The notes under the pieces: model-generated
What the model was told of the DNA's origin: nothing
Database searches by the model: none
The model's input: the letters and a program-made list of their open reading frames with translations, nothing else
Translations under genes and position numbers: made by a program
Source of the DNA: Escherichia coli
GTDB taxonomy: Bacteria; Pseudomonadota; Gammaproteobacteria; Enterobacterales; Enterobacteriaceae
Direction: 5' to 3' (one strand)
DNA length: 64,000 nt
Assembly (NCBI RefSeq): GCF_050920415.1
Contig: NZ_CP169309.1
Shown: positions 42,022 to 49,175 of the stretch, piece after piece
Position numbering within the stretch: the first letter of the stretch is position 1
Layout: every line of letters begins with the position of its first letter

Positions 42022-42321
42022 TTATTCTGCTTTATCAACCGGCGGGATAGCCGGAGGAGATTGAAGATCTGCTACCGAATTATTGCGCGCTTCCAGTTCA
42101 CTGATGCGCTGCTCCAGTAATGCCAGTTTCTCACGAGTCCGTAACAGGACTTGCGTCTGTACGTCGAATTCTTCGCGGCTCACCAGATCGAGACGCGTCA
42201 ACTGCGCTTGTAGGGTTTGGCGGATTTTTTTCTCCACATCTTCCCCGAACTCCCTGATTCCTTTAGGCATTGATTCGTGAACCTGGCGAGCGATTTGCTC
42301 AATTTTTTTCGGGTCAATCAT
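42022..42321 (-). CDS. ubiK: ubiquinone biosynthesis accessory factor UbiK (YqiC, BMFP family)
   Basis: Start taken at [21 protein letters not shown] (ATG 42319-42321); ORF track extends 20 codons further upstream. Confidence 0.85.
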
Positions 42322-42443
42322 TGTAGTTTCCCTGTACTGATAGGTGTTGAGTGCCATTGTAGTGCGATAAGGGTAAGTCATAAACCAGAATTATGTGAAG
42401 CTATGCGTTGCTGCCGCTAATCATTAGCGTTATAGTGAATCCG

Positions 42444-42690
42444 CTTATTCTCAGGGCGGGGCGAAATTCCCCACCGGCGGTAAATCAACTCAGTTGAAAG
42501 CCCGCGAGCGCTTTGGGTGCGAACTCAAAGGACAGCAGATCCGGTGTAATTCCGGGGCCGACGGTTAGAGTCCGGATGGGAGAGAGTAACGATTCTGTCG
42601 GGCATGGACCCGCTCACGTTATTTTGGCTATATGCCGCCACTCCTAAGACTGCCCTGATTCTGGTAACCATAATTTTAGTGAGGTTTTTT
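42444..42690 (+). ncRNA. FMN riboswitch (RFN element) in the ribB leader; aptamer ~42444-42595 plus expression platform
   Basis: Conserved RFN segments agggcggggcgaaattccccaccggcggtaaa, cccgcgagcgctttgggtg, aggacagcagatccggtgtaattccggggccgacggttagagtccggatgggagagagtaacg seen directly. Confidence 0.85.
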
Positions 42691-42694
42691 TACC

Positions 42695-43348
42695 ATGAAT
42701 CAGACGCTACTTTCCTCTTTTGGTACGCCTTTCGAACGTGTTGAAAATGCACTGGCAGCGCTGCGTGAAGGACGCGGTGTAATGGTGCTTGATGATGAAG
42801 ACCGTGAAAACGAAGGCGATATGATCTTCCCGGCAGAAACCATGACCGTTGAGCAGATGGCACTGACCATTCGCCACGGTAGCGGTATTGTTTGCCTGTG
42901 CATCACTGAAGATCGCCGTAAACAGCTCGATCTGCCAATGATGGTAGAAAAAAACACCAGCGCCTATGGCACCGGTTTTACCGTGACCATTGAAGCGGCT
43001 GAAGGGGTGACTACCGGTGTTTCTGCCGCTGACCGTATTACGACCGTTCGTGCTGCGATTGCTGATGGTGCTAAACCTTCAGACTTGAATCGTCCTGGCC
43101 ACGTATTCCCACTGCGCGCGCAGGCGGGTGGTGTGCTGACGCGTGGCGGCCATACCGAAGCGACTATTGATCTGATGACGCTGGCAGGCTTTAAACCAGC
43201 TGGTGTGTTGTGTGAGCTGACTAATGACGATGGCACGATGGCGCGTGCACCAGAGTGCATTGAGTTTGCCAATAAACACAATATGGCGCTCGTGACTATT
43301 GAAGACCTGGTGGCATACCGTCAGGCACATGAGCGTAAAGCTAGTTAA
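42695..43348 (+). CDS. ribB: 3,4-dihydroxy-2-butanone 4-phosphate synthase RibB
   Basis: 217 aa [45 protein letters not shown]... Confidence 0.95.
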
Positions 43349-43370
43349 TAACTCAAAATATTGAAGATGA

Positions 43371-47747: not shown

Positions 47748-47806
47748 GGTGCTGATGAAATTTCATCAGTTTTACCGCCTGGTGTTGTGTAGGTATTAAT
47801 TGCCGA

Positions 47807-48370
47807 TTACTTGTAGTCGAGTACGTAATTAGCCTGTGCCTGCACATTACCCGGGGTCGCGGTGCGTCCCAGAGATTCCATACGGGCTTTAAAGTTCAAC
47901 TCCTGGTAGGAATTAGTTGTCGGGAAGTCGATGGTGATGGGGGTACCAAGAGTCACGTTGGTATTGTCTGATTTCACCAGACGTACTCCTACATCAGTTG
48001 CGCCGCCGATGTTACCTTCCTGTGTGTTTTTAAGCAGGTTGGAGTCGGTAGTGTCAACGCTGGCAGAGCTAAAGGTGATTTTGACTTTATCAACAGTGTT
48101 AGTGCCGTCAGATAAAATACAATCCTGCAAATGAATGGTGACATCTACAGGCAGAGATTTCTGTCCGCTTTTTAATACAGTATCAGCAACCTCACCGAGA
48201 TTTATTGTTTGATCTTCATCACCAGGAGCAATAGAGCAAGGTGCATCGATAACTTCACCCTTAAACGTTATTTTACCGGAACCCTGATTAGGGTCATCAG
48301 CAAGCGCGTTAAATGCAACGCCAGATAATAGTGTGGTTGCGAATATAGATAATAATGTTTTTTTTAACAT
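47807..48370 (-). CDS. ygiL: fimbrial major subunit-like protein YgiL
   Basis: 187 aa with signal peptide and C-terminal beta-strand (..ANYVLDYK) typical of pilins. Confidence 0.8.
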   Translation of the reverse strand: MLKKTLLSIFATTLLSGVAFNALADDPNQGSGKITFKGEVIDAPCSIAPGDEDQTINLGEVADTVLKSGQKSLPVDVTIHLQDCILSDGTNTVDKVKITFSSASVDTTDSNLLKNTQEGNIGGATDVGVRLVKSDNTNVTLGTPITIDFPTTNSYQELNFKARMESLGRTATPGNVQAQANYVLDYK

Positions 48371-48928
48371 GACTTAATCCTTTATAAATAGGAAGAGCTA
48401 TGGATGAGGAAAATATAGGTTTGAATCTAATATTAATTCCGCTATGGACATTACCATAATCAAAGATAATTTGGCTTGTTATTAATATTTAATACTGATT
48501 AAGTAAAACTTAAAATATACATTTTAGTTATATATTTTGATGCATATATCTAGATATTTGTTGAATTTCGTTATGTATGATACATTTTTTGTATGGGTCA
48601 CGGTGAAAGAATGACCACTTATTGACAAAAGTTTACTTCTGATATTGTAAGGTGGTAGAGTATAATTATTATAACGAGTAGGAACGTAATAATCACGAAG
48701 ATATAATATATATCTGGTGGTGCTTATTAATATTAATTAGTGATGTTCCATCCGGGAATAGGATGCATTAATAGTCTTGGTTGTTTCTTTTTTAATCGAG
48801 TATGGTGTATAATACAACACTTGCTATGATCGAAATCATATACTTGATCCACAATTATGCGAGTATATGAATATATTCAACGATGGATATGTGAAATTTT
48901 AATGCTAAATGTTTAGTAATGTTAAATT
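48371..48928. promoter_or_regulatory. ~560 bp strongly AT-rich upstream region of the fimbrial operon (probable nucleoid-protein-silenced promoter region)
   Basis: Long runs of A/T (tatatatt, ttaatattaatta); base composition contrasts sharply with flanking genes. Confidence 0.5.
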
Positions 48929-49114
48929 ATGAAGGTGAAAAGGATGTTTATTGCCTGGTACTGGATTGTATTAATTGTTCTACTAGCTGGTGGCTATTTT
49001 CTTCATCTTAAACGTTACTGTAAAGCTTTTCGTCATGACAGAGATGCGCTGTTAGCTGCTCAAAGTAAATTAGATAAACGCTTCGATAAAGACGTATTTG
49101 AAAAGCATCAATAA
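48929..49114 (+). CDS. hypothetical small membrane protein (61 aa, one predicted TM helix)
   Basis: ORF MKVKRMFIAWYWIVLIVLLAGGYFLHLKRYCKAFRHDRDALLAAQSKLDKRFDKDVFEKHQ with SD ggtgaaaaggATG; not recognised by me. Confidence 0.4.
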   Translation: MKVKRMFIAWYWIVLIVLLAGGYFLHLKRYCKAFRHDRDALLAAQSKLDKRFDKDVFEKHQ

Positions 49115-49175
49115 TACCTTTAATAACGATACAGATGTTGCCTTTAGCAATGGGCAACATCTGTCATAATCGTCT

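Follow-up and report, generated by a model that had tools for sequence, protein, structure and literature searches.

Does the fimbrial operon that bears the name yqi occupy different places in different Escherichia coli chromosomes and, if so, has it moved? This question is raised by a stretch of 64,000 nucleotides from an E. coli genome (contig NZ_CP169309.1; hereafter "the window"), in which a chaperone-usher fimbrial operon lies between ribB and zupT. An original prediction, made from the letters of the window, held that the gene order here seems to depart from that of K-12 and that, if so, the cluster has a different insertion point, as is typical of horizontally mobile fimbrial islands. 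In this report, we conclude with high confidence that positions 43353-48824 hold an intact, four-gene, pi-class operon of the Yqi type, also called ExPEC (extraintestinal pathogenic E. coli) adhesin I or EA/I, in its normal slot between ribB and yqiD-zupT; that the K-12 genes ygiL-yqiGHI form a diverged, Yqi-like operon in the neighbouring slot; and that the difference is a polymorphism of alternative cassettes, not a relocation. A Yqi/Yqi-like polymorphism has been published; the finding is therefore a rediscovery of something already described and ordinary. The observation in the original prediction is confirmed, and its interpretation is partly supported.

Two operons in adjacent slots

The gene order of the window was read from its open reading frames and from the annotation of a complete genome that is 100% identical to it, E. 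coli MFDS1022581 (NZ_CP169399.1). It runs yqiK-yqiJ-glgS-ubiK-ribB-[adhesin-chaperone-usher-major pilin]-yqiD-zupT. In MG1655, the order is zupT-yqiD-ribB-ubiK-ygiL-yqiG::IS2-yqiH-yqiI-glgS-yqiJ-yqiK, in agreement with the K-12 order given in the original prediction. Thus, the two orders do differ, and the chaperone-usher cluster of about 5.5 kb is indeed found on the opposite side of ubiK-ribB relative to K-12. Alignment of the window to MG1655 with BLASTN gave 93-96% identity in the flanks and about 64% nucleotide identity in the fimbrial genes, the latter aligning over the usher and chaperone only. The features of the occupied slot are as follows.

42695-43348, plus strand: ribB, the left border of the occupied slot (99.5% amino-acid identity to K-12 RibB; annotation)
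43353-48824, minus strand: Yqi-type fimbrial island, 5,472 bp (BLASTN break points against O157 and K-12; junction alignments)
43367-43399, both strands: island-borne bidirectional terminator common to ribB and the fimbrial operon (folding; inverted repeat I4)
43402-44445, minus strand: tip adhesin, 347 residues, intact, a rare allele (62% amino-acid identity to the B2 allele, 35% to K-12 YqiI)
44442-45182, minus strand: periplasmic chaperone, 246 residues, with a reading frame extendable to 45191 (best NCBIfam model StdC, 1e-56)
45198-47720, minus strand: outer-membrane usher, 840 residues, intact (best NCBIfam model StdB, 2e-212)
47807-48370, minus strand: major fimbrial subunit of the YgiL family, 187 residues (NCBIfam NF007276, 342.5 bits against a cut-off of 189)
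48371-48824, minus strand: AT-rich region (about 30% G+C) upstream of the operon, at the right end of the island (composition; homology to empty sites resumes at 48825)
48944-49114, plus strand: yqiD-like small open reading frame, 56 residues, the right border of the slot (95% amino-acid identity to the B2 copy, 65% to K-12 YqiD)

All four fimbrial reading frames are intact in the window. The first gene of the minus-strand operon exceeds the cut-off of NF007276, as befits a major pilin of the Fimbrial (PF00419) superfamily. The usher has full-length NCBIfam matches to usher models (StdB and 14 others), and its E. fergusonii homologue is matched by the Pfam domains PapC_N, Usher and PapC_C; the chaperone is recognized by NCBIfam fimbrial chaperone models, StdC and 19 others, and is PapD-like. 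That StdB and StdC are the best models indicates a chaperone-usher system of the pi class, to which the Salmonella Std/Ste/Stf fimbriae belong. However, the scores (707 bits for StdB and 192 bits for StdC) fall far under the equivalog cut-offs of 1289 and 370 bits, and the Salmonella systems, which are found at different loci, are not orthologues.

To which of the two known E. coli operons does this one correspond? In comparison to K-12, the adhesin is 35% identical at the protein level (YqiI), the chaperone 47% (YqiH), the usher 56% (YqiG) and the major pilin 61% (YgiL). These values and the nucleotide identity of about 64% are not those of orthologues within a species, and the K-12 names that the original prediction had given to the four genes belong to distant homologues. 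In comparison to the B2 strain MP1, the corresponding values are 62%, 87%, 93% and 97%. MP1 has a cluster of the same order at exactly the ribB|yqiD site of the window; the position between ribB and zupT and the borders of the island are those of MP1 and of 993 complete genomes. Further, the usher, at 93% identity to the B2 protein, is its sister taxon in a neighbor-joining tree. In O157:H7, both slots are empty.

The name "yqi" thus designates two operons in adjacent slots whose proteins are 35-61% identical, which calls for caution in annotation: because it covers both, name-based synteny against K-12 suggests a false rearrangement. The first is the EA/I of avian pathogenic E. coli (APEC) strain IMT5155 and of UTI89, APEC_O1 and CFT073, which also goes by the alias "ygi fimbria" in uropathogenic E. 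coli. A study of the ygi fimbriae of CFT073 was reportedly made by Spurbeck et al. in 2011. The operon of the window resembles EA/I in its slot, in the order and orientation of its four genes and in its island borders, but differs from it in the receptor-binding domain of the adhesin (identities of 62% for the whole protein and 55.7% for the lectin domain). Nor is the host a typical B2 strain, as it lacks the assT-dsbL-dsbI genes that MP1 carries beside ygiD. The Yqi-like operon is the closest K-12 paralogue, with which the operon of the window shares its fimbrial family, its four-gene architecture and a neighbourhood of 10 kb. Unlike the operon of the window, it sits between glgS and ubiK, truncates or replaces the 3' end of ubiK and, in K-12, has an usher gene disrupted by IS2. 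Its adhesin, confined to E. coli and Shigella, varies little (90-98% identity); the Yqi adhesin, by contrast, is split into many deep alleles.

These two types have been told apart before. Antao et al. (2009; PMC2771359) described a yqi cluster of 4,975 bp in ExPEC that is absent from MG1655, W3110 and O157. Wurpel et al. (2013; PMC3559732) reported that Yqi and Yqi-like are closely related, lie at various locus positions and are mutually exclusive, the last on the basis of 36 genomes (PMC3559732). We queried 5,426 complete E. coli genomes with the adhesin region, and 5,425 with a chimeric query that mimics a double carrier by joining the ygiL side of K-12, ubiK-ribB, and the chaperone and usher of the window. 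An adhesin homologue was present in 993 of the 5,426. No genome among the 5,425 matched the chimera at 80% coverage or more, i.e., none had both clusters flanking ubiK-ribB. An even sample of 60 ranked genomes contained 11 with Yqi, 36 with Yqi-like plus one with a partial Yqi-like cluster, and 12 with neither (approximately 18%, 60% and 20%). Across thousands of genomes, Yqi keeps to one chromosomal slot and Yqi-like to the other. E. coli genomes carry Yqi, Yqi-like or neither, and it is because each genome has one state or another that we read the difference in gene order as one of alternative cassettes. The observation of mutual exclusivity is hereby extended from 36 published genomes to 5,425 complete ones.

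Borders of the islands

Homology to O157 and K-12 ends 4 nucleotides past the ribB stop codon and resumes at 48825, about 120 bp upstream of yqiD. In comparison to genomes with an empty slot, the island takes the place of an intergenic stretch of 139 bp that contains the native terminator of ribB, AAACCGAAG...CTTCGGTTTTT; our feature list gives this ancestral terminator as AAACCGAAG...CTTCGGTTTT. A hairpin borne by the island stands in for it. The original prediction had placed a bidirectional terminator, shared by ribB and the adhesin gene, at 43371-43401, and a hairpin was located there, at 43367-43399, between the convergent stop codons. Its stem has 15 bp, its folding energies are -23.6 kcal/mol (plus strand) and -19.7 kcal/mol (minus strand), with z-scores of -5.4 and -6.2, and it is followed by U-runs on both strands. 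A consensus terminator scan did not list this hairpin, which direct folding confirmed; the scan probably missed it because the stem runs into the A/U runs. A hairpin of the GCCGGG...CCCGGC type, supplied by the island, follows ribB in fimbria-filled slots generally (B2, E. fergusonii, Enterobacter), and where the slot of Citrobacter or Salmonella enterica subsp. arizonae is empty or holds assT, the native ribB terminator is kept. At the other end of the island, the AT-rich segment 48371-48824 presumably holds the promoter and regulatory sites of the operon.

On the far side of ubiK-ribB, the slot that is filled in K-12 is empty in the window. The 3' end of glgS is the left border of that slot, and the gap of 34 nucleotides between glgS and ubiK contains a terminator only. 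As the original prediction had it, this glgS terminator abuts the ubiK stop codon, from which it is separated by 12 nucleotides. The genes and elements that surround the occupied slot are these.

39200-40861, minus strand: yqiK (open reading frames and annotation of the identical genome)
40888-41517, minus strand: yqiJ (open reading frames and annotation of the identical genome)
41787-41987, plus strand: glgS (annotation of the identical genome; 98.5% amino-acid identity to K-12 GlgS)
41992-42009, plus strand: glgS intrinsic terminator hairpin (terminator scan; fold of -13.8 kcal/mol)
42022-42321, minus strand: ubiK (yqiC), 99-residue form (annotation of the identical genome; protein and junction comparison)
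42443-42591, plus strand: flavin mononucleotide riboswitch upstream of ribB (Rfam RF00050, 120.9 bits)
49176-49949, minus strand: zupT (annotation of the identical genome)

The K-12 island has left its mark on ubiK. UbiK has 99 residues in the window, in O157 and in B2, with 97-98% identity among the three, and genomes of the E. fergusonii type have the long form, too (98-99 residues). The K-12-type protein has 96 residues and ends in ...KKQPDPETLPPTL, with its last 20 or so residues different. At the DNA level, the homology to K-12 ubiK breaks at window position 42090 (window 42022-42090 compared with 7072-7131 of the K-12-type locus, L002). The Yqi-like island of K-12 starts directly after the glgS terminator and ends within the 3' end of ubiK. 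Because this border falls inside the gene, UbiK in K-12 is short and has a changed tail; the Yqi-like insertion would have overwritten the last 20 or so codons, and the tail of UbiK in the model organism would be island-derived sequence.

Is the island of the window a mobile one? Its G+C content, 30-47% as compared to about 50% in the flanks, is atypical. It contains no integrase or transposase gene, only the four fimbrial genes, and there is no tRNA gene at the site. Direct or inverted repeats of the att kind do not bracket its ends, where short AT-rich chance matches were all that could be found. Of the features of a classical mobile or pathogenicity island, it thus has the atypical base composition, but no integrase or transposase, tRNA target or flanking direct repeats. 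The term "horizontally mobile island" used in the original prediction fits only in a loose, ancient sense: the low G+C, the presence/absence polymorphism and the swapping of alleles by homologous recombination speak for it, and the hallmarks of a mobile element are missing. The accompanying claim of a different insertion point has fared likewise. The other side of ubiK-ribB and the native-looking junctions stand; a single yqi cluster that moved does not, as there are two diverged clusters, each with its fixed slot.

Ages of the slots and alternative histories

To place the two slots in time, we turned to outgroups. A scan with UbiK, limited to one genome per species, yielded 80 loci from Enterobacterales, which were classified with tBLASTN. 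E. fergusonii, E. marmotae and E. ruysiae are not among the 80, and the cryptic clades lay outside the survey; the contexts of E. fergusonii and E. albertii were recovered through homologues of the adhesin. The exact order of the window recurs in E. fergusonii (CP055696.1) and in E. albertii, with identical insertion borders. Outside E. coli, every locus that has glgS (in Citrobacter, S. enterica subsp. arizonae, Pseudocitrobacter, Raoultella and E. albertii) has it abutting ubiK, and in no non-E. coli locus examined does anything lie between the two genes. A filled K-12 slot was seen in E. coli and Shigella only. Relatives of K-12 YqiI with at least 83% identity are likewise confined to E. 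coli and Shigella, and the next best reach at most 36%; a collection of 5.8 billion proteins held no adhesin in the gap from 36% to 83% that would point to a donor of the Yqi-like cluster.

The slot between ribB and zupT has three states in the outgroups: empty, filled by assT-dsbL-dsbI (three Citrobacter loci and S. arizonae), or filled by a four-gene fimbrial cluster of the same orientation. The last state, a homologous pilin-usher-chaperone-adhesin cluster beside ribB, was found at ten loci, namely those of Enterobacter cloacae, E. hormaechei, E. quasihormaechei, E. chuandaensis, Enterobacter sp. MGH 24, a Lelliottia, two Citrobacter and two Pseudocitrobacter. These unnamed clusters share with that of the window the slot, the order, the orientation and the GCCGGG...CCCGGC hairpin, but only 42-48% of amino-acid residues are identical, and their clade is the sister of the one that unites Yqi and Yqi-like. 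The ribB slot of Enterobacter sp. MGH 24 holds two related chaperone-usher clusters in tandem (positions 2-8567 of locus L035). The ribB-distal one is nearer to Yqi (usher 68%, chaperone 59% and adhesin 50% identical), and it is the closest relative from outside Escherichia among the outgroup loci that were fetched. In neighbor-joining trees rooted with HtrE and YadV, it joins Yqi and Yqi-like in one clade, the sister of the slot clusters of Enterobacter and Citrobacter; Yqi and Yqi-like group together in both the usher and the chaperone trees.

Two side observations concern the family at large. A protein search returned an adhesin closer than that of MGH 24, from [Enterobacter] lignolyticus (58%). 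In S. enterica subsp. salamae, a four-gene cluster of the Yqi family is located between ubiA and plsB (positions 4064-9047 of locus L094), with an adhesin 49% identical to that of the window; in other genera, therefore, the family has occupied unrelated chromosomal sites.

Because the ribB|yqiD position is common to E. fergusonii, E. albertii and B2, and is used by related clusters in other genera, parsimony would make it the older one for Escherichia, with the glgS-side, Yqi-like cluster a later acquisition specific to E. coli and Shigella. This suggests that the K-12 layout is derived, and that it is the reference strain, not the genome of the window, that has the unusual layout. Homologous recombination in the conserved flanks would have carried the states of the slots from one lineage to another.

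Several points weigh against this account. The direction of change rests on parsimony, on a limited sample of outgroups and on neighbor-joining trees without bootstrap. The empty ribB|yqiD state, whose terminator is conserved in Citrobacter and Salmonella, is old as well, and gain and loss at this slot may thus have recurred. Six genomes have a second place that matches the chimeric query, such that a handful of rearranged double carriers is possible. Finally, cryptic chaperone-usher operons are often silent.

What other histories could have led to the two layouts? The simplest is that the same yqi operon was relocated in the genome of the window, whether the cluster was transposed or the ubiK-ribB segment crossed over it. 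The four-gene architecture and its orientation relative to the flanks are the same in both layouts, and formally the orders differ by the shift of a 1.3-kb ubiK-ribB block. Yet copies of one operon should not be so dissimilar: protein identities of 35-61% and a DNA identity of about 64% are far beyond the divergence seen within the species, and the core of the window is 95-99% identical to all E. coli. The break points also differ in kind, with the ribB terminator replaced in one case and ubiK truncated in the other, and the layout of the window is common to other Escherichia species. The relocation of one operon was rejected on sequence divergence, and we accord it next to no probability. Alternatively, an ancestor could have had both clusters flanking ubiK-ribB in an ancient tandem state, with reciprocal loss leaving each lineage with one. 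The grouping of Yqi with Yqi-like in the usher and chaperone trees is compatible with such an ancestor, and the two clusters in the ribB slot of MGH 24 demonstrate that tandem states occur. However, none of the 5,425 complete E. coli genomes keeps both clusters around ubiK-ribB, nothing fills the glgS|ubiK slot of E. fergusonii, E. albertii or any other genus sampled, and the Yqi-like adhesin is without relatives above 36% identity outside E. coli and Shigella; we deem this history highly improbable.

It could also be that the lineage of the window acquired the whole cluster recently, as a mobile island that landed beside ribB. The low G+C content (30-47% against about 50%), the flanks (93-96% identical, compared with up to 97.8% for a core stretch outside the closest genomes) and the great rarity of the adhesin allele are all in keeping with an import, and the related cluster at ubiA|plsB in S. 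enterica subsp. salamae attests to the mobility of the family over long time-scales. Against this stand the lack of an integrase, a tRNA gene and terminal repeats; insertion borders that are identical in B2, E. fergusonii, E. albertii and the close relatives of this lineage; and the 93-97% identity of the major pilin and usher to those of B2. Only the adhesin and the 3' part of the chaperone gene look imported, which fits allelic recombination in a resident locus. A recent acquisition of the whole therefore has a slim chance of being correct, and the reading as alternative cassettes, with a probably older Yqi slot beside ribB, is the one we retain.

The flanks deserve a further comment. Positions 39000-43352 and 48825-50883 are 93-96% identical to K-12, O157 and B2, with yqiJ at just 85-91%. 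Identity to ordinary E. coli reaches 97.8% in a core stretch at 17000-30000, and the C-terminal half of YqiD varies between haplotypes (65% amino-acid identity). The divergence of the flanks and the variation in YqiD suggest that old, linked haplotypes surround the fimbrial slot. An origin in a cryptic clade or outside E. coli was considered as an explanation of the 93-96% and rejected, as the 13-kb rpoD-cca core is 95-99% identical to all 5,425 genomes. This core has at least 99% identity to about 18 genomes and at most 97.8% to complete E. coli beyond that small group. By these comparisons, the window is from an E. coli of a rare lineage, whose extra divergence is local to the fimbrial neighbourhood.

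A rare adhesin allele and its predicted role

The most unusual component of the operon is its adhesin. Residues 22-211 form the lectin domain and residues 212-347 the pilin domain, in the manner of two-domain adhesins. The former aligns end to end with the solved lectin chains 9rwu/9rwv (E = 1e-65) and with 9rwe; this match to solved chains, made by sequence, concerns the lectin domain only, and the pilin domain (the C-terminal 136 residues) was assigned from its position and conservation. The chains 9rwu/9rwv are B2-like, and 9rwe resembles K-12 YqiI. Solved lectin domains of several adhesins of the Yqi family (9rwu, 9rwv, 9rwe, 9rx0 and 9rww) are available, comprising B2-like, YqiI-like and a third type; a literature search for their depositors found no associated paper.

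This allele occurs in just two of the 5,426 complete genomes, MFDS1022581 and N96, the latter from a Tibetan pig (99.8% identity); the other 991 adhesin alleles are 65-67% identical to it at the DNA level. In MFDS1022581, an IS2 element is inserted at the junction of the adhesin and chaperone genes (at window 44344-44350; positions 6352-7680 of locus L001), and the adhesin is annotated as a pseudogene. The window is without IS2 and has four intact genes; it thus derives from a sibling strain or from a state that preceded the insertion.

The divergence of the operon is far from uniform. DNA identity to B2 falls from 93% in the major pilin gene and 90% in the usher gene to 87.5% in the 5' half and 80.3% in the 3' half of the chaperone gene, and to 63-67% in the adhesin gene. 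At the protein level, the lectin domain is 55.7% and the pilin domain 69.1% identical to those of the B2 adhesin. The close relatives WL297 and 2013C-4282 (99.2% identical in the core) have at the same site an E. fergusonii-like adhesin of 351 residues that is 61% identical to that of the window. In the protein collection, the adhesin falls into several deep allelic classes, at 86%, 66% and 60-62% identity, and one of these, class P0002, is a mosaic with a lectin domain like that of the window and a pilin domain nearer to that of B2. From this gradient, the rare allele would have come by recombination into a resident operon, with a break point inside the chaperone gene, and the pattern of identities fits a recombinational swapping of the receptor-binding module within that operon.

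What might such an operon do? Most likely, it assembles adhesive fimbriae, with the lectin domain of the adhesin determining which receptors they recognize. The B2 allele forms fimbriae and contributes to adhesion and to the colonisation of chicken lung (PMC2771359), and Yqi binds glycans with terminal beta-GlcNAc (N-acetylglucosamine), Lewis A and blood group B (Day 2021; PMC8545135). Our prediction of an adhesive function rests on the B2 allele, which promotes adhesion and has terminal beta-GlcNAc and fucosylated glycans as its ligands. The specificity of the B2 allele cannot be assumed for that of the window, which is from the same locus but from another allelic class, with a lectin domain that is 55.7% identical. 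The rare allele could, speculatively, matter for host or tissue tropism, since the B2 allele aids APEC in colonising the lung and binds host glycans.

These facts raise a possibility that we put forward tentatively, and with less than even confidence. The adhesin may represent an uncharacterised allelic class of Yqi (two of 5,426 genomes, both associated with food animals) that was apparently recombined in, the break point falling within the chaperone gene, and that may have a different glycan specificity or tropism. The ribB|yqiD site, in turn, may be an ancient, cross-genus cassette slot, holding a Yqi-family operon, assT-dsbL-dsbI or nothing, whose cargo brings its own bidirectional terminator.

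The assT-dsbL-dsbI (arylsulfate sulfotransferase) genes are a second cassette that floats in this neighbourhood. Their place is between ygiD and ygiC in B2 strains of E. coli and in E. fergusonii (positions 11930-15098 of locus L003). They fill the ribB|yqiD slot of several Citrobacter and of S. enterica subsp. arizonae (approximately 5650-8880 of loci L010, L011, L023 and L027), and they are absent from the window, where the ygiD|ygiC junction is at 50883-50918. Elsewhere in the window, the annotation of the identical genome places an element of the IS200/IS605 family between ygiM and ygiF (31019-32689), with an ISEc41 tnpA gene and a gene for a TnpB/InsQ RNA-guided endonuclease. Between hldE and yqiK, there are two tandem copies of a type I Sib antitoxin RNA/Ibs toxin pair, at 38450-38599 and 38826-38976 (Rfam RF00113, 149 and 144 bits); the E. 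fergusonii and E. albertii loci have three ibs copies at this position.

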